Below the pieces are notes generated by a model that saw only the letters and a program-made list of their open reading frames with translations, had not been told where the DNA came from and did not search any database. 64,000 bases of DNA. It comes from a plasmid. This document shows positions 12,640 through 40,746 of this stretch, one piece after another (the first letter of the stretch is position 1; each line of letters opens with the position of its first letter). Location of the stretch: the sequence record NZ_CP123987.1. One strand, 5' to 3'. The translations under genes were made by a program, and so were the position numbers.

Positions 12640-13473
12640 GTGATGTTGATGAATTTGCTTAATAATATAGAAGCAATTTTCTCCACACTTTCTCGCCAAG
12701 AACGTAAAGTAGCTTTAAAAGTTCTTCAAAATCCTCAAGAAGTACAATCTATGAATATTACTAAATTAGCTAAAAAAGCGGGTGTTAGTAATGCTACTAT
12801 CACTCGCTTTGTGCGTAGAATGGAATGTTCTGATTTTCATGATTTTAAATTAAAGCTCGCTATATCTGCTGCTAGCTCTCCTGAGGTTCCAGTTTCTTCT
12901 GAAAGCGATTCTATGGGAGATAAAGTTTACGAATTCTATCAAAAAGTACTTCAAGGTACTTGGAAGCAACTAGATACTGACACTATTCATAATATTGTCC
13001 ATGCTATTACTAAGGCTCGTCGTGTCTACGTTTACGGTTTAGGAAGTTCAGGTTATACTGCACAAGAATTCACTCAACGACTAATTCGTATGGGAATTGC
13101 TGCTTTTTGTACAGTCGATAGCCATATGATGTTTATAGATAGTACTATTGTAAACTCTGATGATGTTATCATCGCCATTAGTCAATCTGGTAATACTGAT
13201 GATGTAAATGTTGCTTGTTCTTTAGCAAAACAAAAAGGAACAAAAATTATCAGCATCACTGGATTTTATCAAAGTCCACTTATCGAACTCTCTACTTGGA
13301 GTGTAGTTGTTAAAAACAGTAATTTTGTTGATAATACTCGCTTTATTAATTCTCAGCTAGCGATCGTTTATGTTATCGATATTATTACAATGGAACTGAT
13401 GGAAAAATCTGAATATAGTTCTACTATGAATAAGACCGTTGAATTAATCATGGATCGAAAATTATCTAAATAA
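12640..13473 (+). CDS. RpiR/MurR-family transcriptional regulator (HTH + SIS domain), probable nan regulator
   Basis: 277 aa with an N-terminal HTH_6 and a C-terminal SIS domain. Confidence 0.75.
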   Translation: MMLMNLLNNIEAIFSTLSRQERKVALKVLQNPQEVQSMNITKLAKKAGVSNATITRFVRRMECSDFHDFKLKLAISAASSPEVPVSSESDSMGDKVYEFYQKVLQGTWKQLDTDTIHNIVHAITKARRVYVYGLGSSGYTAQEFTQRLIRMGIAAFCTVDSHMMFIDSTIVNSDDVIIAISQSGNTDDVNVACSLAKQKGTKIISITGFYQSPLIELSTWSVVVKNSNFVDNTRFINSQLAIVYVIDIITMELMEKSEYSSTMNKTVELIMDRKLSK

Positions 13474-13524
13474 CAACACCAATTGGGGTTTCTCAGTTGG
13501 TGTTTTTTGAAAGAAGGCATCGCT

Positions 13525-14142
13525 ATGAAAATTACCGTCGTTGGTGGAACTGGATTAGTCGGTCAAGGGATATTGTCCGAACTATCTAAAGATAAATCAC
13601 TAGATCTCCACTCTATTTCACGTAATGGTAAACGTCCTAATTCCATTACTGGTATCACCTACCACTCTTTTGACTTAGCTCATGACACTAATTGGCATTA
13701 TTTACTTCAAACTTCTGATTGGGTTATTGATTGTATAGGAATTCTTTTCCCTAATAAGTCAAAAAATCAGACTTATGAAAATAGCAGCATTCAACCTGCT
13801 AAGTTAATTATTGATAATATCGTTGATTCTGATAATAAATTTTTGTTCATCTCTGCCAATTCAGCTCCATTCTTTTTAAATAATTATTTACAAGCTAAAA
13901 GAACTGTTGAAAATTATGCTAGTAGAAAACTAGGTAATCGTGCAATATCAGTCTATCCTGGATTAATTTATTCTAGATTTAGAAGAAGCAACTATTATCC
14001 TGCTGTAATATTAGACTTTTTATTAAAATTCAAACTATTTAGTTTCCTAAGAAAATTTCGCCCAATTAGTAGAGAAAGATTTGCTAAAGAAATACATTAC
14101 ATAATAGAAGGAAAAAATAGTAGTCTTACTTATAGAATTTAA
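13525..14142 (+). CDS. NAD(P)H-binding oxidoreductase (NmrA/SDR-like)
   Basis: MKITVVGGTGLVG Rossmann motif; ATG at 13525 with a GAAAGAAGG RBS. Confidence 0.6.
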   Translation: MKITVVGGTGLVGQGILSELSKDKSLDLHSISRNGKRPNSITGITYHSFDLAHDTNWHYLLQTSDWVIDCIGILFPNKSKNQTYENSSIQPAKLIIDNIVDSDNKFLFISANSAPFFLNNYLQAKRTVENYASRKLGNRAISVYPGLIYSRFRRSNYYPAVILDFLLKFKLFSFLRKFRPISRERFAKEIHYIIEGKNSSLTYRI

Positions 14143-14314
14143 AAGCAATTAAATTTAATCATAATTTAATTTTTTATCATTATAATTTAAATATATTTAC
14201 AGAAGATATTAAATCAATCAATTATTAAATTAATCATCTTTTTCTTAATTACTCAACTTTGTTTTAATCATTATATGCTAAAATAATCTTTATCATTTTT
14301 AAAGGAGATTTTTT

Positions 14315-15802
14315 ATGAATGATAAAAATAAAAAAATAGGCTTATTTAGCTTAATCATGATGATTTTTTCAAGTATTTTTGGTTTTGCTAACATGCCAGT
14401 TGCTTTTTTGCAAATGGGATATGCTAGTATCATCTGGTATATTTTTGCAGCCATCTTTTTCTTTCTGCCAGTATCTATGATGCTTGCAGAATATGGCTCA
14501 ACTTTTAAAGATGAGCAAGGTGGTATTTATGCTTGGTTAAGTAATACTATTGGTGAAAAGCTTGCATTTATCGGAACTTTCATCTGGCTTTCTAGTTGGA
14601 TAGTTTGGTTAATAAATATTTCATCAAAAGTATTTATCCCCTTCTCTGCCTTATTATTTGGTAAAGATATGACACAAACTTGGGCTTTTGGTCCTTTCAG
14701 TGCTACCCAAGTAGTTGGAATTTTAGCTATTCTTTGGATTATTTTCGTTACTTTCTTTGCAAGTCGTGGTGCAGATGTTATTTCTAAGGTTTCTAGTATT
14801 GGCGGAACTTTCGTAACTGGAATGATTTTTGTATTTTTAATTGCTACTTTCATTTCTTTGTTTGTTACTCATGGACACTTCGAACAACCAATTACAGCAT
14901 CTGCATTTGTTAAATCACCTAACCCTGCTTTTACTAACCCGGTTGCTACTCTATCTTTTGTTGTATATGCTATTTTTGCTTATGCTGGCATGGAATCTTT
15001 AGGTGGAATGATTGATAATATTGAGGAGCCTGAAAAAACTTTTCCTAAGGGTTTATTGATTTCTTCAATATTAATTGCAGTTGCTTACTCCTTCATGATT
15101 CTTTTATGGGGTGTCAGCGTAAATTGGAAAGATGTTCTTTCTAGTGACTCTGTTAACCTAGGAAATATCACTTATATAATGATGCAACATCTTGGTATCT
15201 ACCTCGGACATAGCTTAGGATTATCTGCAAGTGTAAGTAATTTAATCGGAAATATTTTTATCCGTTTTGTTGGTTTAGGAATGTTTTTAGCTTATGTTGG
15301 TTCATTCTTTATTTTGATTTATTCTCCAATTAAATCATTTATCTTAGGATCTAAACACTTATGGCCAGAAAAAATGACTAAACTTAACAAGCACGGCATT
15401 CCAGAATTTGCAATGTGGATGCAGGCTCTACTTGTATGTATCTTGATATTCTTAATTTCATTTGGCGGTGGTCAAGCTAAGAGTTTCTACACGATTTTAA
15501 CTGATATGTCTAACATATCAACTTCGTTTCCTTACTTATTCTTAGTTGGTGCCTTCCCTATATTTAAGAAAAAAGGATTTAAGCAACCATTTATTGCTTA
15601 TAAAAATCATACTTGGACAAAAATTATTACCTATATATGTTTCTCAATTATCTTATTTGGTATCATTTTCACTTGCGTTGATCCATTTATACAAGGTGAT
15701 TGGGTAACCGGATTTTGGACTGTTATTGGACCAATTTTCTTTGGTTCTCTAGCTCTAGGAATTTATACTCGAGCAACAAAGAAAAATAAGAATAAAAATT
15801 AA
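14315..15802 (+). CDS. APC-superfamily amino acid permease
   Basis: 495 aa, 12-TM APC transporter features. Confidence 0.75.
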   Translation: MNDKNKKIGLFSLIMMIFSSIFGFANMPVAFLQMGYASIIWYIFAAIFFFLPVSMMLAEYGSTFKDEQGGIYAWLSNTIGEKLAFIGTFIWLSSWIVWLINISSKVFIPFSALLFGKDMTQTWAFGPFSATQVVGILAILWIIFVTFFASRGADVISKVSSIGGTFVTGMIFVFLIATFISLFVTHGHFEQPITASAFVKSPNPAFTNPVATLSFVVYAIFAYAGMESLGGMIDNIEEPEKTFPKGLLISSILIAVAYSFMILLWGVSVNWKDVLSSDSVNLGNITYIMMQHLGIYLGHSLGLSASVSNLIGNIFIRFVGLGMFLAYVGSFFILIYSPIKSFILGSKHLWPEKMTKLNKHGIPEFAMWMQALLVCILIFLISFGGGQAKSFYTILTDMSNISTSFPYLFLVGAFPIFKKKGFKQPFIAYKNHTWTKIITYICFSIILFGIIFTCVDPFIQGDWVTGFWTVIGPIFFGSLALGIYTRATKKNKNKN

Positions 15803-15855
15803 ATTTAAAGCCCTAATTAGTTGCGATGATTTATCGGACTAACTAAGGCTTTTTC

Positions 15856-15963
15856 TTATTTATTCTTTTTATGTGCTTTAATTATTTTAAGCGCACGTTT
15901 CTTAGTCTTACGATTACTGCTTCGCAAACGACGATAAGCACTTGATAAATCTGTCTTTTCCAT
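15856..15963 (-). CDS. small basic protein (35 aa) cotranscribed with rpsN paralog
   Basis: ATG preceded by a GAGAGGTGA RBS; MEKTDLSSAYRRLRSSNRKTKKRALKIIKAHKKNK; not in the ORF track because it is short. Confidence 0.4.
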   Translation of the reverse strand: MEKTDLSSAYRRLRSSNRKTKKRALKIIKAHKKNK

Positions 15964-15982
15964 TATATTCACCTCTCTTTAA

Positions 15983-16252
15983 CTACCAACTTGCTTTATG
16001 GACACCTGGTATTTTTCCTTGATGTGCCAACTCTCTAAAATTAATACGTGACATTTTAAACTTACGCATATATGCACGTGGACGACCATCAATTTCATCT
16101 CTATTTTTTAATCGTATAGGGTTAGAATCTTTAGGTAATTTTCGCAAGCTCTCATAATCATGATTTACTTTCAACTGTTTTCTTATCTCTGCATATTTAG
16201 CAACTAACATTTGCTGTTTTCTATATTTAGCAATTTTTGATTTTTTAGCCAA
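15983..16252 (-). CDS. rpsN: 30S ribosomal protein S14, Zn-independent (C-) paralog
   Basis: 89 aa S14 without CxxC motifs; a Zur-box-like palindrome lies in its promoter. Confidence 0.85.
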
Positions 16253-16271
16253 AATTATACCTCATTTCATT

Positions 16272-16326
16272 TAAATAGTAATTATTACTTTTTTAAATGA
16301 TAACAATTACTATTTAAAAAGTCAAT
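16272..16326. promoter_or_regulatory. candidate Zur boxes in the rpsN / GTPase divergent promoter
   Basis: AAATAGTAATTATTACTTTT (core GTAATnATTAC identical to the Firmicutes Zur-box core) and a second degenerate copy AAATGATAACAATTACTATTT. Confidence 0.5.
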
Positions 16327-16453
16327 AAAAATTATCATATTCAGAGTAAAGTTAAATAATTTGATTACTTTTTTTCAATTTTCTACAATTATCTTATTAA
16401 CTACTCTAAGATTAGAAGGGAGAACGGCATTTTTTTTATTGCCTATTAATTCA

Positions 16454-18373
16454 TTGAAATATATTGTTACTGGAATTATTGCCAATGTTGATGCAGGAAA
16501 AACTACTCTTTCTGAAGCATTACTATATCAAACGGGAAATCTACTCAATTTAGGTCGCGTTGATAACGGCAATACTTTCTTAGATACTGACCAACTAGAA
16601 AAAAAGCGTGGTATTACTATTTTTTCACACCAAGCAAATTTAGAATATAATGATCTTTCACTGACAATTTTAGATACTCCAGGACACGTTGATTTTGTTA
16701 CTCAAACCGAACAAGTTTTAAGTGTTCTTGACTATGCTATATTAGTTATTTCTGCTACTGATGGAATTACTAGTCACACTAGATCTCTTTGGAATTTGCT
16801 AAATCATTACCATATTCCTGTATTTATTTTTGTTAATAAAATTGATATCAGCACTAATAAGGCCTCACAGATTTTATCTCAATTAAAAAGTGAATTAGAT
16901 GAATCAATTATTGATTTTTCTTCTGATAATATGATTGAAGATATTGCAACGTGCAATGAATCATTATTTGAAGAGTATTTGCAAATTAATACCATATCTG
17001 ATGAAAAAATTCTATCACTAATCTCTGATAGAGTTATTTTCCCATGCTATTTTGGCTCTGCTTTAAAGTTAGATGGTATTGATAAATTTTTACAAGGATT
17101 CAATCAATGGACAAAAAAGTTACACTATCCGAATAATTTCCAAGCCAAAGTATTTAAAATTTCTCACAACGATAAAGGTGAACGTCTAACCTGGCTTCGT
17201 ATTCTAGGCGGCTCTCTAAAAACTAGAGATGAATTATTACCTGAACAAAAAATTAGTCAAATTAGAGTATATAATGGTGAAAAGTTTTCAACTTACCCAA
17301 CTGTTACTGCTGGTCAAGTTTGTACAATTCCTGGGCTAGTAAATACCTATCCTGGTTTAAGCATTGGTAAAAAACAAGTAGATACAATTCCAATCGTTAC
17401 ACCTGTTTTAAGTTATGCTCTTGACCTCAATGGCAATGATATTCAAGCTTGTTTAAAAGCTCTTCATGAATTAGAAGATGAAGATCCTAAGTTACATGTT
17501 ACTTGGTCTGAACATCTCAAAGAAATTAGTGTACAAATTATGGGAGAAATTCAGTTAGAAATCCTAGAACAAATACTCCTTGATCGATATAATTTAAACG
17601 TCACTTTTACTAAAGGAAATATTTTATATAAAGAAACTATCACTAATTCTATTGAGGGAGTTGGTCACTTCGAACCACTTCGTCATTATTCAGAAGTACA
17701 TTTATTATTAGAACCTGGAGAAAGAGGCAGTGGTCTCCAGTTCGAAAATCAATGTAGTCTAGAAGTCTTAAATAAAAATTGGCAACATCAAATTATATAC
17801 AATCTCAAGTCTAAAGAGCATCTAGGTGTATTAACTGGTTCCCCTCTTACTGATGTAAAAATTACCCTTTTAGGCGGGAAAGCTAGCAATGTACATACAG
17901 TTGGTGGAGATTTTCGTCAAGCATGTAGTCGTGCAGTTCGACAAGGTTTAATGATGCTCAGAGAAAATAATAATTGCCAACTCTTAGAACCTTGGTATCG
18001 TTTCAGACTAAAAGTTGATCGTACTCAAATTGGTCGTGCAATCAATGATATTCAACGAATGCATGGTACCTTGGATGAACAACAAGTTGAGGGGATACTA
18101 ACTGGAATTGCTCCTGTTTCAGAAATGTACAATTATGCCACCAATGTACGCGCATATACTCATGGGAATGGCACACTAGAATTGGAAATTGCTGGTTATT
18201 ATCCTTGTCATAATTCGACAGATATAGTATCTCAACAAAATTATGATCCTGTATCAGATTTAGAAAATACTCCACAATCTGTTTTCTGTGCTCATGGAGC
18301 TGGATATACAGTTGACTGGAAAGATGTACCTACAACTATGCATTGCGAGTATTTTTGGAATGGGATGAATTAG
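16454..18373 (+). CDS. EF-G/TetM-like translational GTPase (ribosomal-protection-type protein)
   Basis: G1-G4 motifs (AHVDAGKTTL, DTPGH, NKID); the domain order parallels Tet(M)/Tet(O) and EF-G; start uncertain (TTG 16439 or 16454; the track ORF begins at 16361). Confidence 0.7.
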   Translation: MKYIVTGIIANVDAGKTTLSEALLYQTGNLLNLGRVDNGNTFLDTDQLEKKRGITIFSHQANLEYNDLSLTILDTPGHVDFVTQTEQVLSVLDYAILVISATDGITSHTRSLWNLLNHYHIPVFIFVNKIDISTNKASQILSQLKSELDESIIDFSSDNMIEDIATCNESLFEEYLQINTISDEKILSLISDRVIFPCYFGSALKLDGIDKFLQGFNQWTKKLHYPNNFQAKVFKISHNDKGERLTWLRILGGSLKTRDELLPEQKISQIRVYNGEKFSTYPTVTAGQVCTIPGLVNTYPGLSIGKKQVDTIPIVTPVLSYALDLNGNDIQACLKALHELEDEDPKLHVTWSEHLKEISVQIMGEIQLEILEQILLDRYNLNVTFTKGNILYKETITNSIEGVGHFEPLRHYSEVHLLLEPGERGSGLQFENQCSLEVLNKNWQHQIIYNLKSKEHLGVLTGSPLTDVKITLLGGKASNVHTVGGDFRQACSRAVRQGLMMLRENNNCQLLEPWYRFRLKVDRTQIGRAINDIQRMHGTLDEQQVEGILTGIAPVSEMYNYATNVRAYTHGNGTLELEIAGYYPCHNSTDIVSQQNYDPVSDLENTPQSVFCAHGAGYTVDWKDVPTTMHCEYFWNGMN

Positions 18374-18421
18374 CAAAAAGCGAAGTTAGACGAAAAGGTT
18401 AATATATTGGTTGTGTAATAT

Positions 18422-18462
18422 TTAGGACTGATAATGTAGAATTTTTTACATTACGGTCCTTC
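18422..18462 (+). terminator. rho-independent terminator after the GTPase gene
   Basis: GGACTGATAATGTA…TACATTACGGTCC hairpin followed by a T-rich tract. Confidence 0.5.
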
Positions 18463-18696
18463 TTTTATTTTCTTCATTTTGCGTCAAAATAAAAGAGAGA
18501 GCCCACACGTCAATCTAATTAAAAAAAGGACACCATCTCTATGGATATACTTTTACTTGGAATTACAGACCCTAATTTAACTATTGATCTTAAATATCAA
18601 TATATTTCGTATATTGAAGAAAAAACTATTAAAAATAGTAAGGTTTTGCTCTGTCATCTATAGCGGTCGCCCATCTATTTCACCTTTATTTTTTTA

Positions 18697-18840
18697 CGTA
18701 CAAGATTAGAATCCTTAGGTAATTTCCGTAAACTCTCATAATTGTGAGCTGTTTTTAATTTTTTCTTAGCTCCACATATTTAGTAATCAATATTTGTTGC
18801 TTTCTGTACTTTGTAATTTTTGATTTTTTAGTATTGGCTA
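18697..18840 (-). pseudogene. truncated duplicate of the S14 (rpsN) 5' region
   Basis: ~75% nucleotide identity to 16128-16258. It encodes IANTKKSKITKYRKQQ…[12 protein letters not shown], which aligns with the S14 N-terminus ([14 protein letters not shown]…). The ATG is mutated to ATA and the ORF is truncated after ~50 codons. Confidence 0.7.
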
Positions 18841-19643
18841 TTCTTCCAGAAGCATGGTTTGTTAATTTTATTATTTTAAGTGTGCTTCTAATTCTCTTAC
18901 TTGCTTGTTTGTCAGCAACGGCAAGAAGACTTAGAGACGTTGGATATAGTGGTTGGTTTACTTTCCTATCTTTTATTCCTTATTGTGTAGGACTTATAAT
19001 ACTTTTATTTTTCACAACAAAACCCTCTAAAAAAGAAAACAATAAGTACATAGAAGATACACAATCTAATTTGGGCAAGTTTCTTATGCAATCGAATAGA
19101 TCATTTATTGGTTCTTTATTAGTATTAGCTTTATTATTTGGTGCTATTGGCGCAACAGATACTGATAATAACAGTGGAAATAACAATAGTTCTTTTGCTG
19201 CGAATAAACACAGTTCAAAGCATAAGAATAATAGCAGTCGCCATAAAAAGAAAAGTAGTTCTTCAAGTAAAAAGGATGAAGATAAACATGAAAGTAGTAG
19301 TTCTTCTGAAAATTCTAGTTCATCTAGCGTAGTAGAAGATTATCATCCTATAACTTATGATGAATTAGCTCGTAATCCCCAAAGTCATATGAGTGAGCAT
19401 ATTCAAGTTTCTGGTAGTGTAGTACAGGTTGTAGAGAGTTCTAAAGCGTTACTCGTAGACTTAAATGATGACCCAGACCAAGCAGTTATTGTAAGAATGT
19501 TAAAGAGTAATAATAATAACCGTATTTTAGAAGGTGATTGGGTAAACATTCAAGGAACCAGTGTTGGAACAATAGATTATAAAACTGTAATGGGAAACAC
19601 AAGAACTGTTCCTGCTATTACCACTACAAATATAACAAGATAA
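18834..19643 (+). CDS. membrane protein with a DUF805-type motif, Ser/Asn-rich linker and C-terminal domain
   Basis: RRLRDVGYSGWF motif typical of DUF805; the N-terminal part appears to be replaced by the rpsN fragment; start uncertain. Confidence 0.5.
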   Translation: MAILPEAWFVNFIILSVLLILLLACLSATARRLRDVGYSGWFTFLSFIPYCVGLIILLFFTTKPSKKENNKYIEDTQSNLGKFLMQSNRSFIGSLLVLALLFGAIGATDTDNNSGNNNSSFAANKHSSKHKNNSSRHKKKSSSSSKKDEDKHESSSSSENSSSSSVVEDYHPITYDELARNPQSHMSEHIQVSGSVVQVVESSKALLVDLNDDPDQAVIVRMLKSNNNNRILEGDWVNIQGTSVGTIDYKTVMGNTRTVPAITTTNITR

Positions 19644-19699
19644 ATAACCATACAGGTATTGGTTCTGATGAGCTAATACCTATTTTTGTATGCAAATAT

Positions 19700-20140
19700 G
19701 CCTGTTAGACGTACTTTAAGCATAAGTTCAAGTTATAATATGAATAAATCTCACAAAATGAGTTGCCAGATAAAATTATAAAACTTAGCTTTAATCGTTA
19801 TAATACACGGAAAGATAAGTATGGGTTTAAGAGAAATTTAAAGATATATCAAGCTAACAAAATTCAACTATCATCAAAGTTAGATAAACTAGCTAAAACG
19901 CCTAGTAGACGTCAATAACAAATTCAAGTTAATCAAACTTGGAATTATTATAAAGAAAAAATAAAAGAAAACCTCTCTAGTGATGAAGGACAGGCCATTT
20001 ATCGTCGTCGTAAGTATGATGTAGAACCTGTTTTTGGTCGTATGAAGAGGAATTTTGGTGTGCGAAGAACACATCTTAGAGGACAAAAATCCGTTGAAAA
20101 CGATATAGGATTAGTTTTAATGAGTATGAATTTAGTAAAA
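19700..20140 (+). pseudogene. IS1182-family transposase C-terminal remnant
   Basis: Translation …AIYRRRKYDVEPVFGRMKRNFGVRRTHLRGQKSVENDIGLVLMSMNL matches the conserved C-terminus of IS1182-type DDE transposases; no start codon and no N-terminal part. Confidence 0.65.
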
Positions 20141-20165
20141 TGATAGCTCAGTTTAGTGCTAGATA

Positions 20166-20215
20166 TATAGAATATATAAAAATTCGACTCCAAATTTTGA
20201 ATTATTCAGAATTTT
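20166..20215. terminator. bidirectional rho-independent terminator / IS-end hairpin
   Basis: AATTCGACTCCAAA…TTTGGAGTCGAATT perfect 14-bp stem flanked by A and T runs. Confidence 0.5.
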
Positions 20216-22193
20216 GGAGTCGAATTATTTTTTAGGAGCTAGAAATCAATAGTTTTTTCATCCTCTTTATCAGTATATTATACATTATATTTTATTTATT
20301 TATATTATGGTAATTCATTAACACAATGTTATTGTTTATCTTTTGTGATAGTTTAAAGATATCTCATTCCTACATTTAGATTCTACTTTCCACCAAATAT
20401 TTTCCCAAAGAATCCTTTTTTCTTTTTATTTCTCTCATCCATTGCGTCAACCACTTGTTTAACTAGATCTTTTTGTAAATCCATTTGAATTTGTGCTTGC
20501 ATCTTAACTTGCCTATATGTTTCCTCTTTCTTATCAGTAATTCCGTGAGTATCCTCATACTTTTTGCGAAGAACAGGCTCTCCCATCCATTTATCGAAGT
20601 TATCTACATCGATCATGAATCCAGAAGTACCATACTTACTACTATCAGAAATTTCATACTTACGCGGAAGATTATTATAGTACAACCCCATCTGTGAACT
20701 ACCATTATTTTTATTGGTCCCATCTGACAATTTATTAAACGCTTGTTTATTAAATTGTGCTTGTAGCTGCTTTCTATAAAAGAAAAATCGTCTGGTTCTT
20801 TTACCTGTTCTATTAACATATGCCAATCTGACTTACCTCTATATAAAGCATAGTCATAGTTATCTTTTTCAAAAAATTTCTCAATTTCTTGAAAAAGATC
20901 ATATTTAACAAGTAAGTCCTTTAAGATTTTCTTAATTGGATACAAAAAGTCTGCCTGAATTTTTATAGCATCCTCTTCTGAAATATCTTTAAAATATTCT
21001 TCCAATAATTGTTGGCATAAGTAATATAGATCAGAGTCAGCACGATTTAGTAGTTCATCTACTTTCAAATCTCCTTCTTTACTGTTACCTTTAAATGATG
21101 ATTCAAAAGATAAGAACCAAATACGTCTTGCAATTTCATGACGATTAGATACAACGCCCTTAGAATCATCCTCTTTATTCATTGTAAATATTGCAGTAGG
21201 CATTGGGCCAGTTATAGAGTTTGAATTGCGTTTAATCATATCTTCAAAATATTGTCTAGTTGTTAAATCAGGACGAACATCATCAATCATTAATGGACTA
21301 ACTGGACCTGATGTTTGTAAATATTCATTAATAACATCACTTATTGCTTTGTTAACATATTTATTTCTTTCTTCAAACTCACCACTACCCGTAAAATTTA
21401 GTGCACCTGTCAACTTAGCGGCTAATCTTCTACCTAATGTCGATTTTCCCGTCTTACCTTGTCCAATCAAAGCAACTGCTATTGGAACATCTTCTCTATG
21501 TTTGCTTTTATCCGCTAAATCATATAAATCTCTTACCCTCCAAATAAAAGGTGCTTCATATAAATATAATAAAAATCCTAACGTCTGCCATCCTTCTCCT
21601 GATAACTTATACGTATCATACTCGTTGACAATATCGCAGAATAATTGTAATTTTTCTTTTAATTCTTCATCACTCAATGAAACTTGTTTTAAAACTTGAC
21701 CACCTTCGCCTACTTTGGATGCAGTAAATAATTTTTCAAATTCATTATTCCAAATTAAAGCTGGTTTAGGGAAATAATCCACATCATTTTTTTTCTTAGA
21801 TGATTTTTTTGAATTTTCTTGATACTCAATAATTTGATTTAAGTTTAAGATTTCACTAGTAGCTTTCTTTAAGGTCTTTTCTTTTCTCAGATTACCTAGT
21901 TCTGTAAATAACTTAATTGTTTGATTAACAGTTACAGCTTCCTTTTTACCTAAATTGCCATTTTGAATTTCCTTAGTTGTATCATTTAAATACACTTTTA
22001 CTTCATCAGAAGGAAAGTTTACCTTTTCATCTGTATCGGCAGAATTACTTAACATATTGATAGAATCAGTGTACACATTAAGCTGTGTTTGTTTTGAATT
22101 ATCTTTTACAAGAAAACCTTTTAAGCGTTTTGAATCTTGAAGTGCCTTACAATTGTTAGACAAAGTCTAGCGATTGTGAGGTGCTTTTTTCGT

Positions 22194-22712
22194 ATGACTA
22201 AATATACTCAAAAATTCAAATTAGATCTTATTCAGGAATACCTAGATACTGGCTGTTCACAACGATGGATAGAAAATAAGTATTCTTTACCAAAGGATAC
22301 CTTAAAAAAATGGTGGACTGTATACAATTTAAAAGGACCCGAAGGGTTGAAATTACGACATTTCAAACGTAAATTTACTGTTGATTTTAAACTTCGTGTG
22401 ATAAACTACTACCTAAATAATGATGTTTCAATGTCCAAAGTGGCAGCTTCCCATAATCTTTTGTGTTCACAGATATCTATCTGGTTGAAGTTGTTTATGG
22501 AAGGTGGATCTGAGGCCTTGAAACCCAAGAAGAAAGGTAGGCCAAGTAAGATGTCAAAAATGACAAAGAAGGATGCACGCAAAATCTTAAAAAAGGAAAG
22601 TGATGAAATTGCGGCACTAAAGAGTGAATTACGTCAAGTCAAAATGGAGCGTGATATCTTAAAAAAATCGTTGACCCTGTTCGGACCCTCAAAGCCAAGG
22701 AGAAAACAATAA
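22194..22712 (+). CDS. IS3 family transposase OrfA (HTH)
   Basis: Typical IS150 OrfA; an A7 slippery run (TTAAAAAAATCG, ~22659-22670) allows a -1 frameshift into OrfB. Confidence 0.75.
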   Translation: MTKYTQKFKLDLIQEYLDTGCSQRWIENKYSLPKDTLKKWWTVYNLKGPEGLKLRHFKRKFTVDFKLRVINYYLNNDVSMSKVAASHNLLCSQISIWLKLFMEGGSEALKPKKKGRPSKMSKMTKKDARKILKKESDEIAALKSELRQVKMERDILKKSLTLFGPSKPRRKQ

Positions 22713-22714
22713 TT

Positions 22715-23612
22715 GTGGATCAGATCAGGGTGGACCAACAAAACTTGCCCAAAAAGGAACGATATGGGATTGGTGAGCTTCTAAAAACGATTGACTTGAA
22801 GCGACCAACCTATTACGATGAACGCAAACGTATCATCAATAAAAATGATAAGTATGCTGATGTTAAGGTGGTAATCAAGGAAATAGCGGAAAAAGGTAAA
22901 TGGAGAGGTTCTTACACATACGGCTATCGCCGTATAATGCCACTTCTTGAAAAAGCTGGATATCACATGGCTGAAGCCACTTTACGTCGCCTAATGAACG
23001 AATTAGGTGTACAACCAGCTATGTATAATCGTCGTAAAAATAATCACTATTCTTCTTATAAAGGTACAGTTGGTAAGGTAGCTGATAACTTGTTAAACCA
23101 AACATTTGATGCTACATCTCCTTTTACCGTTCTTCATACGGATGTTTCACAGGTACGTCTAGGTGATTCGACCTGGGCTTACATGTCAGTCATTTTAGAT
23201 CAAGCTACCAAGGAAGTTTTAGCCGCTTCTGTTAGCCAAAGCCCAAATAAATTGTTGATTATGGATACATTAAACCAGCTTGAGGATAACCTCCCTAATA
23301 ACTTTAGTCCAATTATCCATTCTGACCAAGGATGGCACTACCAATTAGAATATTACCGTGAAAAGATTGATTCGTTAAGTTTAATTCAAAGTATGTCCCG
23401 CAAGGGAAACTGCCTAGATAATGCCCCCAATGGAAAGCTTTTTCTATCTTTTTAAAGTTGAATCACAGCCTGAAATAAAGAAATGTAAGAGTATTTCTCA
23501 GTTCACACATTTCTTTAACAAGTATGTCAATTGGTACAATAATGACCGAATTTCCAATAAAACAAAAAACATGAGTCCGGTTGATTACCGAACCCATGTC
23601 TTAGCTGCTTAA
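22715..23612 (+). pseudogene. IS3 family transposase OrfB (DDE integrase) with a +1 indel in a C-run
   Basis: DDE domain HTDxG…D…NAP then a frame change at GCCCCCA (~23425): …GNCLDNAP|MESFF… continues in the 63-aa ORF 23421-23612. Confidence 0.7.
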
Positions 23613-37334: not shown

Positions 37335-38615
37335 GTGATTTATATGAGAATTTATATTTTTGGAATGCTTTCAACTTTGATGATAGAGGTAATTACATTA
37401 TCTTATTCAAGCAAAGTAAAGTTTGATTTTTTGCATATAATTGCATTTGTTTTGTTAATGATTATTTGCATACCGATTAAAATTAGTAATTTAATTATGA
37501 TTATCGGTGGAGTATTGATTACCTATCATCAAGATAATGGAAGAGACAGTTGGTTGAGATACATAATTTTTGTAATGTATTCTTTTATCACGACTTAGAT
37601 TTTACAAGTAGTTTTGAATTTTTATGGAAATAAAATCTACGATTGGTTTAACTACAATAATTATTTAGGAACTTTGGTTTGTCAAAGTATAATCTTTTTA
37701 ATGCAGATAGGAATTATCTATTGGTTTAAAGATAGTTTGGAAATTTTATCAATGTCCGATTCAAGTAAAAAGAGAAAGATGGAATTAGTGGCTATTGCAT
37801 TTTTAGCAATCTATTTAATTTATGGATCAACATTTAATGATAATTACAATAGTTGGTGGATAAGCGTTTATGTAATAGGATTGATTTTATTTTGGGGATA
37901 TATAAGAGCGATTGCCTTATTGGAAACTAAACGAGAACTTGATGAACTAAAAGATTTTGAATTACAGAATATTGAAAATTACGCGAACAAGATTGAAGAA
38001 ATGTATCAAGGTCTTAGAAGGTTCAGACATGATTATTTAAATATCTTACTTAGCATGGATCAAGCAATAAAAAGTGGAAATTTAGAGTTGATAGAAGAAA
38101 CGTATACTAAAATTATGGAACCAAGTAAAGAAAAGATTAACGCAGCTTACTATGATTTGGGTAAACTGAAACATGTAAAAACTTCAGCAATTAAAAGTAT
38201 TCTTTATAATAAATTTAGTTATGCGGCTCGTGAAGGAATTGAATTGGAAATTGAAATAAATGATGATGTTACGGTTCAATACACAAGATTGCTAGATGCA
38301 GTTAGAATACTATCTATATTGTTGGATAATGCAATTGAAGCGGCGTTGGAAAGTAAGGAACCACGATTATTAGTGGCATATATTAAAGATGCTGATATTG
38401 AAAGAGTAATTATTGAGAATAGTACTAAAGTAGGAAGAGTAGAGATAGCCCCACTGTTTAAGGAAAATTATACGACTAAGAGTGGAAATAGAGGGCAAGG
38501 ATTAGCGACTGTTAAAAGGTTGATCGGTCATTATCCCAATGTATCCTTAAAAACAAGTAGTAGTGACTATACATTTACTCAGGAGTTAGTTTTAAATAAG
38601 GAAGAAAAAAGATGA
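37335..38615 (+). pseudogene. AgrC/ComD-like (HPK10) quorum-sensing histidine kinase with an in-frame TAG
   Basis: The 87-aa ORF (3 TM) and the 333-aa ORF (3 TM + HisKA_3-like + HATPase) are in the same frame, separated by TAG at 37596-37598. Confidence 0.7.
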
Positions 38616-39305
38616 AAATATTTATTTTAGAGGATGATTCACTTCAAATTTTACGCTTAAAGTTGGTTTTAGAGAGTATTCAACCAAACTTAGTGATTCA
38701 AACTTTTAAAGAATCAGATAAATTATTGCAACATATTACTCAGCCAGATGAAAATAATATTTATTTGCTGGATATTGAATTAAAAAATTCTAGATATGGT
38801 GGTTTTGAAGCTTCTCGAAGAATTAGAGAAGTTGATAATTTAGGTACAATTATTTTTATTACTACGCATTCAGAATTTATGAGAAAAACATATGAGTACA
38901 GAGTAGCGGCGCTAGACTTTATTGATAAAATCCAAACAAATGATGAAATTAAACAGAGTTTGGTTACAGATTTTCAATTGATAAAAGAAAGACAAAACTT
39001 AAATGAAGAAACTGAATTTATTGAATTAGAAAGTAATTCTGAAATTTTTAGAATACCGGTATCTGATATATATTTTTTTGAAACAATCACTGACTTAACA
39101 AAAAGGAAATTTAAAAAGCATAGAAACTAAGAGCGATAGTTTTATGAGAGTACATAGATCATTTGTCGCAAATGTAAATAATATCAAGAGATTTGATAGT
39201 AAGGAAAAGAAACTATATTTTAGCGAAAAGACTTATTGTTTAGTTTCTCGAAAAAATGTAGTTCCATTAAAAAATATACTTAAAGAAGGATTTGTGGAAA
39301 TGTAA
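38612..39305 (+). pseudogene. LytTR-family response regulator (AgrA-like) with a frameshift
   Basis: The receiver domain (38612-~39070) is followed by the LytTR start …FRIPVSDIYFFE. The frame breaks near the A-runs at ~39100-39145, and the rest of the LytTR domain (MRVHRSFVANVNNIKRFD…) is in another frame, 39146-39305. Confidence 0.7.
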
Positions 39306-39417
39306 AAAATTACCATTTGGTGTAAATTTAGTACCATTCAGTGCAAATTTCTAAAAAATCATAATATTTTGGCTATACTAACAACAGTTTTTAAGGAAAG
39401 GAGGATATGTTTTTATA

Positions 39418-40746
39418 ATGAAGGTTATGCGGGAAATTGTTGTTGGTTTAGTATTTTTATTAGGTTTTGTAATTAATTTTCATTTTGGAAATAGCAATGT
39501 TTCGGCTGATAACATTGATCGTTATATCGCTTATGTGGGGCAATCACAGGATTCATACGGAATGCCAATTTATGTACAAAATTTAAGTACAGGAAAAGTT
39601 GATGTTGCTTATTGTATAAATGAATCAAAGAAATTACCTTACTCAGCAGTATATAACAGATTTGATGCAACGCCGGAACGATTGATGGCATTAGATAATC
39701 CACTGGTAGATAGGGAGCAGTTACCAGATATTATTAAAAGAATCATATACAATGGTTATCTATTGAATGCTACTAAGTTGCAAGGAAAACTATCCGACGG
39801 TGCTTTCAGAAGACTTACTCAACTTGCAATTTGGCATTATAGTGATTCATATAATGTAAATGAAAATGAATTAACACAAGAAGAAAGAATGGTATATAAC
39901 GAATTGATACAAAGCGTCAATCCGGTACCAGTAAATCTAAACTTAAATATATATGTAAAAGATGACAGTACATATCAAGACTTGCTAGGGACAAGTTTTG
40001 GTAAATTACCTGAACACCCACAATTTAGTTCAAGTAGTTCAGTTTCAAGTAGCTCGAGTTCGAAACCTTCAAGTTCTAGTTCCTCATCAAGCATTGAATC
40101 TTCAAGTTCAAGTGTATCTAGTTCTTCGAGCTCAAGTTCTTCAAGTTCAGTAACTAAGGCTGAAAGTACTTCGAGTTCTTCTTCAGTAAGTTCAAGCAGT
40201 TCTGTTTCTAGTAGCGTACCCCAGATTGAAACTTCAACTGTTAGTTCAAGTAGTTCGAGCTTAAGTAGTTCAAGCTCAGTAACAAAAGCTGAAAGTACTT
40301 CATCCAGTTCAAGTAGCTCAAGTGAACAACAAGAATCAAGTTCCTCGTCTAGTATTCCAAGTTCAAGTAGCTCAAGTTCTGTGGAAAGTTCTAATGTAAG
40401 TTCAACTTCCAGTGTAAGTAGTAGCTCAAGTAGTGAGCAAACCTCCAAAGTCTCAAGTGAACAAAGCAGCTCATCTTCTTCAGAAATTAGTATTGTACCA
40501 TCTGTTGCGACATCTACAAGTAGTTCGAGTTCTACTAATAGTGAAAAGGTGATTCCTGTTGAGACAAGTTCAAGTTCATCAAAGAAAGAATTAGTAAGTA
40601 AGAAAGTTAATTCATCGGTCAAAGTAGATAAGAAAAAAGATTTACCGCAGACAGGTGAGAAGCATAATGAAGTCTTATGGCTAAGCATACTAGGGTGTAT
40701 AGTTCTTGCTGGTTCGCTTTGGATATTTGAAAGAAAATACAAATAA
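39418..40746 (+). CDS. LPXTG-anchored surface protein with an N-terminal thioester (TQXA) adhesin domain and a serine-rich stalk
   Basis: Signal peptide; Cys in VAYCINE and Gln in TQLAIWHY match the thioester-domain (TED) Cys–Gln pair; ~190-aa Ser-rich region; LPQTGE + TM + KRKYK sorting signal. Confidence 0.75.
   Translation: MKVMREIVVGLVFLLGFVINFHFGNSNVSADNIDRYIAYVGQSQDSYGMPIYVQNLSTGKVDVAYCINESKKLPYSAVYNRFDATPERLMALDNPLVDREQLPDIIKRIIYNGYLLNATKLQGKLSDGAFRRLTQLAIWHYSDSYNVNENELTQEERMVYNELIQSVNPVPVNLNLNIYVKDDSTYQDLLGTSFGKLPEHPQFSSSSSVSSSSSSKPSSSSSSSSIESSSSSVSSSSSSSSSSSVTKAESTSSSSSVSSSSSVSSSVPQIETSTVSSSSSSLSSSSSVTKAESTSSSSSSSSEQQESSSSSSIPSSSSSSSVESSNVSSTSSVSSSSSSEQTSKVSSEQSSSSSSEISIVPSVATSTSSSSSTNSEKVIPVETSSSSSKKELVSKKVNSSVKVDKKKDLPQTGEKHNEVLWLSILGCIVLAGSLWIFERKYK
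40020..40560 (+). repeat. serine-codon tandem-repeat region inside the adhesin gene
   Basis: Reiterated AGTTCAAGTAGCTCAAGT-type units. Confidence 0.8.

Follow-up and report, generated by a model that had tools for sequence, protein, structure and literature searches.

In a 64,000-nucleotide (nt) stretch of the plasmid record NZ_CP123987.1 (the window, numbered from its first letter), we analyzed a locus that encodes a cysteine-free ribosomal protein S14 (rpsN2) followed by a 35-amino acid (aa) peptide of the RsaX20/ZinP family (zinP). A GTPase that resembles TetM and elongation factor G (EF-G) is encoded divergently, and a degenerate second copy of rpsN2 lies beyond it. The region from 15800 to 19700 is 100% identical to pLS2102-15_1 (NZ_CP090412.1, 140.8 kb) of Ligilactobacillus salivarius. 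We consider it likely that rpsN2 and zinP form a two-gene zinc-limitation operon on a repA-type L. salivarius megaplasmid, and that the flanking GTPase and the rpsN2 relic lie outside this mechanism.

The rpsN2 and zinP genes

The rpsN2 gene (15983-16252, minus strand) encodes an 89-aa, long-form S14 protein of the zinc-independent type. Its start codon is TTG, with a ribosome-binding site (RBS), GAGG, 7 nt upstream. The protein matches the S14 family over its full length (NF006477, 112.3 bits, cut-off 77), and also PF00253 (92.6 bits, cut-off 27), which makes the identity of the gene firm. As the first-pass annotation of this DNA had recognized, the protein is free of cysteine (none in 89 residues). 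The CxxC...CxxC zinc ribbon is accordingly absent, and the protein reads NRDEIDGRP...MSRINFRE at what we take to be the positions of the four cysteines of type Z S14 proteins. An identical S14 protein is encoded on many megaplasmid-sized contigs of L. salivarius. A zinc-binding, type Z S14 is presumably encoded on the L. salivarius chromosome; the searches found one in three other species of the genus, L. ruminis (where it lies in the spc operon), L. pabuli and L. pobuzihii. The type strain DSM 20555 (L014:3501-3770, NZ_AYYT01000020.1) has an rpsN2 allele with an in-frame TAA at codon 13, so that the gene is a natural pseudogene there unless the assembly is in error; despite this stop, its zinP, its GTPase and the putative operator sites described below are intact. 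A literature search on pMP118 or on the L. salivarius S14 found nothing relevant.

The second gene of the operon, zinP (15856-15963, minus strand), begins 19 nt past the rpsN2 stop codon and has an RBS (GAGAGGTG) 7 nt ahead of its ATG. The 35-aa product belongs to the RsaX20/ZinP family of putative metal homeostasis proteins, as it matches NF038026 over profile positions 1-32 of 32 (61.7 bits, cut-off 30, E = 3.9e-17). In RefSeq it is WP_003699379.1. A scan of this small open reading frame (ORF) with our copy of Pfam gave no match; the peptide is matched by NCBIfam and by the precomputed Pfam family PF28144. The interval described in the first-pass annotation begins at 15856, which is the stop codon of zinP, and the ORF itself was missing from it. 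In the loci retrieved through the S14 protein, rpsN2 has a homolog of zinP directly behind it in Enterococcus, Vagococcus, Granulicatella, Lentilactobacillus kefiri, Companilactobacillus and others. Thus, rpsN2-zinP is a recurrent module of the Lactobacillales. In Staphylococcus aureus, ZinP is encoded inside the small RNA (sRNA) ZinS; Zur is its direct repressor, zinc starvation induces it, and the authors speculate that it inhibits zinc efflux (bioRxiv 10.1101/2025.08.23.671911).

Between zinP and the convergent permease gene yjeM lies a hairpin (15807-15852) with U-rich tracts after it on both strands. When folded as RNA from the minus strand, it has a stability of -21.1 kcal/mol (z = -6.1), and none of 200 shuffled sequences was as stable. 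It is likely a bidirectional intrinsic terminator that ends the rpsN2-zinP transcript. A simple terminator scan found nothing, and so missed this hairpin, which was seen by folding. An Rfam scan of 13000-22000 (E up to 1) identified no leader, riboswitch or RsaX20-like RNA, and returned three chance eukaryotic matches only.

Zur-type boxes over the predicted rpsN2 promoter

Two adjacent 21-nt sites that resemble Zur boxes were identified upstream of rpsN2. The proximal box (16273-16293, AAAAAGTAATAATTACTATTT on the gene strand) has 17 of 20 matches to AAATCGTAATNATTACGATTT and includes, at 16277-16289, the palindrome AGTAATTATTACT. The distal box (16295-16315, AAATAGTAATTGTTATCATTT on the gene strand) has 16 of 20 matches here; in allele B of the locus (L013: AAATAGTAATTGTTACTATTT) the count rises to 17 of 20. 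Both have the form of a 7-1-7 inverted repeat, TCGTAATnATTACGA, within AAAT...ATTT flanks, at a level of agreement above chance. A scan of the 64-kb window for the pattern AAATNGTAATNATTACNATTT, with up to three mismatches allowed, found three matches where 0.53 are expected (none of 100 shuffled sequences reached three), and the two best are this tandem pair. The third match (39298-39318) was rejected, as it has three mismatches and sits in unrelated direct repeats.

Those repeats (39290-39350) are three in number and GTAAAnnTTACCATT-like. A GHKL histidine kinase/response regulator pair (37614-39130) precedes them and a gene for a thioester-domain LPXTG surface protein (39418-40746) follows; they probably constitute a LytTR-type operator.

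The predicted rpsN2 promoter (16297-16325, minus strand) consists of TTGACT, a 17-nt spacer and TATCAT with an extended TG, and scores 10 of 12 in a consensus scan. It is kept in both alleles of the gene, A and B. The distal box overlaps its -10 hexamer and spacer, and the proximal box spans the predicted transcription start (+1) and the early leader. This placement over the predicted promoter is the usual geometry of a repressor site. Both boxes are retained in the diverged rpsN2 alleles of L013, L014 and L094, in which about 11% of positions differ. Thus, the proposal of Zur-box-like operators at rpsN, made in the first-pass annotation from the palindrome, can be extended to two tandem boxes.

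That annotation had held that Zur control would be in doubt if the genome had no Zur homolog or if the motif were not enriched at other zinc-regulated genes. A Zur ortholog, LSL_1450, is published for L. salivarius UCC118 (Ravcheev et al., 2013, supplement 3, PMC3616900), so the first of these objections does not apply. The published Lactobacillaceae Zur regulon includes znuA, znuCB, zur and rpsN2 (Ravcheev et al., 2013, PMC3616900). The motif is also enriched. Upstream of long S14 genes of Firmicutes we found 2.8 sites per kb, compared to 0.025 per kb elsewhere in the same loci (about 110-fold), and 26 of 53 such loci have a site with at least 17 of 20 matches within 200 nt upstream. Canonical Zur boxes occur at the matching position upstream of rpsN2 in Staphylococcus, Enterococcus, Listeria and Bacillaceae. 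The long-S14 loci without a site come mainly from Streptococcus, Limosilactobacillus and Leuconostoc; in streptococci, zinc control is attributed in the literature to a different regulator, AdcR.

The GTPase, the relic and their megaplasmid context

The gene divergent from rpsN2 is an ORF on the plus strand (16361-18373), for which the Prokaryotic Genome Annotation Pipeline (PGAP) places the start at 16439 to give 644 aa (an alternative TTG at 16454 would give 639 aa). The protein has five domains, GTP_EFTU and EF-G domains II to V, and the DTPGH motif is intact. It falls below the cut-offs of the tetracycline ribosomal protection families (NF012153, NF033148) and of EF-G: 379 bits for tet_protect (cut-off 775), 273 bits for tet_protect_M_W (cut-off 1100) and 254 bits for the EF-G family TIGR00484 (cut-off 659). 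The best matches in the PDB are TetM and TetO, at about 231 bits, with EF-G slightly behind (about 199 bits). It is loop 3 of domain IV by which TetM dislodges tetracycline. The YSPVS of this loop in TetM and TetO aligns to A-S-N-V-H-T in the GTPase, and the motif AS(N/I)VH(S/T)VGGDF is kept in 12 Lactobacillaceae orthologs. Orthologs of about 60% identity occur in Companilactobacillus, Paucilactobacillus, Pediococcus, Levilactobacillus, Lactiplantibacillus, Loigolactobacillus and Lactobacillus, several of them on chromosome-sized contigs of 2-2.8 Mb. Given the sub-cut-off scores and these widespread orthologs, we conclude that this is a vertically widespread translational GTPase of the Lactobacillaceae, rather than a Tet determinant. 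What was first described as a ribosomal-protection-type GTPase is therefore EF-G/TetM-like in architecture and divergent in orientation, as stated, yet reaches the threshold of neither family.

RefSeq/PGAP names the protein a 'TetM/TetW/TetO/TetS family tetracycline resistance ribosomal protection protein', and orthologs carry the names EF-G, TetM, TetO or GTP-binding protein. The Tet naming is probably a systematic misannotation. In a metagenome contig (ERZ28636211 scaffold_29, L003:3881-5458) that is otherwise identical to the window, the GTPase is called as a 525-aa protein that lacks the G domain, which suggests a frameshift or stop in the 5' part of the gene.

The GTPase has its own predicted promoter (16361-16389, plus strand; TTGATT, 17 nt, TACAAT; 9 of 12 in the scan). 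The form TTGA(T/C)T-17-TACAAT and the RBS are the same in five upstream contexts, and the sequence to the left of about 16355 depends on context. All 31 matching PLSDB records are L. salivarius megaplasmids of one replicon cluster. On other megaplasmids, insertions of 1.5-13 kb separate the GTPase from rpsN2: about nine carry a 13-kb block (IS1380, TMEM175, GNAT, fucose-utilisation genes and an alcohol dehydrogenase), and isolates from Meles meles have ArsR/SmtB and DsbA genes at this place. Homology of the insertion-type megaplasmids begins at 16355, the breakpoints fall at 16335-16355, and both insertion types have the same sequence beside the GTPase promoter. The rpsN2/GTPase intergenic region at 16335-16355 is thus an insertion hotspot. 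The Zur-type boxes always remain with rpsN2. Among the sampled loci, the pairing of rpsN2 with this GTPase is restricted to L. salivarius, and the other species sampled all lack such a GTPase within 3.5 kb of rpsN2. As the boxes stay with rpsN2 and the GTPase is separable, we view the adjacency as old in the plasmid lineage, with no sign of co-regulation. Deletion of the GTPase by recombination between the two rpsN2 copies was considered as the cause of rpsN2 neighborhoods that lack the GTPase; this was rejected, since the two genes are parted by the 13-kb insertion, with breakpoints at 16335-16355.

The second copy of rpsN2 is a pseudogene relic on the minus strand (18665-18846). It comprises codons 2 to about 57 (18665-18831) and about 15 nt of the former 5' untranslated region (UTR). 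It has two frameshifts and stops in all frames, and no promoter remains. Over 169 aligned nt it is 78.7% identical to the resident rpsN2 (blastn E = 1e-33), with two 1-nt indels, and the starts of the two copies are 2583-2585 nt apart. A copy in the same orientation had been reported correctly in the first-pass annotation, where its length was given as about 140 bp, its identity as about 75% and its distance as 2.4 kb; these values are really about 170 nt, 79% and 2.58 kb. A mutation of the start from ATG to ATA, also claimed there, is an error, as the rpsN2 start is TTG and the homology between the window's two copies stops at codon 2.

The relic is more similar to other alleles than to the resident gene, with 87.6% identity to that of the Meles meles plasmids (L013) and 85.8% to that of the type strain (L014). 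It occurs in eight of the 31 megaplasmid records, always 3' of the GTPase. In UCC118, CECT 5713 and the type strain the rpsN2/GTPase arrangement is the same and the relic is absent. In NZ_CP101686.1 (L012) the relic extends upstream into a decayed 5' UTR, where the RBS now reads GAAG instead of GAGG and the start codon TTA instead of TTG. Of the proximal Zur box, one half is left there, and the remaining operator and promoter sequence is eroded. We infer that the relic descends from a second rpsN2 locus that was once complete.

The truncated end of the relic is abutted (18664/18665) by a remnant of an ISL3-family transposase gene (18541-18663, plus strand). Intact ISL3 transposases are annotated on 17 L. 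salivarius megaplasmids, and the fragment is 89% identical to their N-termini (tblastn). No more than the first 40 codons are left, so this is a remnant, not an element with a complete transposase and terminal inverted repeats. In two other loci (L094 and L095), a different insertion sequence (IS) begins at the position equivalent to 18538. At its other end (about 18846/18847) the relic is fused to a DUF805 ORF (18834-19643, plus strand) that lacks about 43 N-terminal profile positions (PF05656 is matched at positions 44-109 of 111), and homology with L012 ends at 18846. RefSeq annotates this ORF as intact; its TTG start lies inside the relic, and it has a long Ser/Asn-rich linker and a C-terminal part with no assigned domain. 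The ISL3 fragment and the affinity to allele B indicate that the relic is what an IS-associated deletion left of a second copy from a different allele, and not a duplication caused by insertion of the GTPase. The copy was probably shortened by two deletions, one into the ISL3 element and one into the DUF805 gene. Farther to the right, 20383-23455 belongs to a variable, IS-rich region that includes a 516-aa ORF with no Pfam match, beside IS3 transposase fragments and a short annotated 'transposase'.

Predicted zinc control, alternatives and related systems

The following mechanism is consistent with these features. When zinc is replete, a chromosomally encoded Zur of the Fur family (the ortholog of LSL_1450) would act in trans on the two adjacent boxes, which span the -10 hexamer, the spacer and about 20 nt at the 5' end of the transcript. 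Its binding there would block transcription. When zinc is scarce, Zur would leave the DNA, and the cysteine-free S14 and the 35-aa ZinP would be made. This S14 could then enter new 30S subunits without zinc. The rpsN2-zinP transcript would stop at the hairpin that is common to the convergent yjeM. The fail-safe, zinc-sparing role of S14 is known for YhzA/RpsN2 of Bacillus subtilis, which serves as the model for its role here.

Several points weigh against this mechanism. Binding of Zur and zinc-responsive expression of rpsN2-zinP are predictions from sequence. The rpsN2 promoter is predicted from its fit to the consensus, and in this very AT-rich sequence fits of that kind show no overall enrichment (19 versus 15.6 expected). 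Look-ups of protein databases, clusters and contigs assigned no type Z S14 to L. salivarius. The in-frame stop in the type-strain allele implies that rpsN2 is dispensable at least there, unless it is an assembly error. In addition, the distal box has only 16 of 20 matches here, and its half-site TGATAAC is as Fur/PerR-like as it is Zur-like. This half-site, together with the AT-richness of the DNA and the lack of a Zur box at about half of the surveyed long-S14 loci in other taxa, would fit the alternative that the palindromes are sites for another Fur-family protein (PerR is present in the species), or plain AT-rich palindromes, and that rpsN2-zinP is constitutive. We consider this unlikely, because three of the four half-sites have the Zur-specific GTAAT/ATTAC core, the distal box of allele B is Zur-like in both halves, and the boxes correspond strongly in position to the canonical ones of Staphylococcus, Enterococcus, Listeria and Bacillaceae. 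Moreover, Zur control of ZinP, which is co-transcribed here, has been demonstrated elsewhere, and outside these boxes the 64-kb window is free of the pattern, apart from the one three-mismatch match in an unrelated direct-repeat operator.

The neighborhood of the operon suggests other explanations. Two same-orientation copies 2.58 kb apart flank the GTPase, as might be expected if it had been inserted or rearranged into the rpsN locus and had duplicated the resident 5' end as direct repeats that bracket the insert. The relic is, however, closer to the L013 and L014 alleles than to the resident gene, in L012 it retains a 5' UTR of its own and half a Zur box, as the remains of a once complete, separate locus, and its far end adjoins the ISL3 fragment. 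As rpsN2 and the GTPase are likewise adjacent in UCC118, CECT 5713 and the type strain, none of which has a distal copy, and the breakpoint of the separated genes lies outside the repeat, we think this origin quite improbable. The rearrangement footprint reported in the first-pass annotation is thus real, and linked to ISL3 on the 3' side of the GTPase, but the second copy does not derive from the resident 5' end and does not mark the border of an inserted GTPase. The GTPase could also be a functional and regulatory partner of S14, with one bidirectional, Zur-controlled region between the genes and a role in ribosome remodelling or protection under zinc limitation. The two genes are divergently adjacent in many L. 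salivarius megaplasmids, including that of the type strain, both products act on the ribosome, and GTPases of the COG0523 family are classic members of Zur regulons, so a GTPase neighbor is suggestive. Yet the boxes stop 46 nt upstream of the GTPase -35 hexamer and overlap the rpsN2 promoter only, and the promoter and RBS of the GTPase are kept despite inserts in the contexts aligned, so the shared divergent promoter first proposed is not supported. In L012 and L095, where the GTPase is away from rpsN2, there is no Zur-like site (at least 16 of 20); none of 52 other species has the GTPase within 3.5 kb of rpsN2, and orthologs elsewhere are often on chromosome-sized contigs. We therefore regard such a partnership as very improbable. 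Least probable of all, in our judgment, is that the GTPase, the zinc-free S14 and ZinP together are a plasmid-borne ribosome-adaptation unit and that their adjacency is functional rather than accidental. If this were so, the GTPase might act on the 30S subunit when zinc is limiting, for example by exchanging or accommodating the alternative S14 near the tetracycline/A-site head region.

Judged by its sequence, rpsN2 belongs with the Zur-regulated, cysteine-minus S14 paralogs of B. subtilis (yhzA/rpsN2) and S. aureus (rpsN2), and with the predicted Lactobacillaceae regulon. All encode an 89-aa S14 without the four zinc-ligand cysteines, have 7-1-7 boxes over the promoter, and occur in hosts with a published Zur ortholog. 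The gene studied here differs in that it is megaplasmid-borne, so that its repressor, being chromosomal, must act in trans. Its boxes are two in tandem instead of a single one, it is co-transcribed with zinP rather than alone, and its regulation is predicted. Similarly, S. aureus ZinP/RsaX20 (NF038026, PF28144) belongs to the same family of basic peptides (34-35 aa) and has Zur boxes ahead of its gene. There it lies within the dual-function sRNA ZinS next to gpmA, whereas here it is a plain second cistron after rpsN2, in a region where no Rfam RNA family was matched.

Plasmid-borne rpsN-zinP pairs with Zur-box-like sites also occur on L. brevis pl12108-1 (L100:2461-3640) and Pediococcus damnosus pL21532-4 (L101:2287-3560). 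In these beer-spoilage plasmids the operon comprises rpmF (L32), a hypothetical gene, rpmG (L33), rpsN, zinP and a gene for a zinc ABC binding protein, to which P. damnosus adds an amidase gene, and Zur-box-like sites of 16-18 of 20 matches lie immediately upstream of rpmF. The L. salivarius module consists of rpsN2-zinP only, and has about 68-70% DNA identity to these operons. Long-form rpsN is also found on 17 L. plantarum plasmids, for which our table of matches gives no zinP annotation. The GTPase shares the five-domain architecture and the intact DTPGH of Tet(M)/Tet(O) and EF-G, and TetM and TetO are its best structure matches (231 bits), but it scores less than half of the curated cut-offs, has the conserved AS(N/I)VH(T/S) in place of YSPVS, and falls in a vertically widespread orthologous group of Lactobacillaceae instead of being a mobile resistance gene.

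In summary, Zur-controlled, zinc-free S14 paralogs are textbook knowledge, and RefSeq already names both genes of the operon. Particular to this locus are the megaplasmid location, the tandem boxes and the co-transcription of zinP, although carriage on a plasmid is not unique. As its Tet label is unsupported by the cut-offs, the GTPase should not be counted as a resistance determinant in safety screens of probiotics. Although the finding changes little for the field, it is of modest value that the module lies on a megaplasmid and would have to answer to a chromosomal repressor. The gene zinP, so far characterized only in S. aureus, is the cistron after rpsN2 in many Lactobacillales, which may offer a cleaner context for study of the peptide. 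Given that plasmid-borne rpsN-zinP modules recur in beer-spoilage lactobacilli, zinc-sparing paralogs look like mobile cargo for niche adaptation in the Lactobacillaceae.

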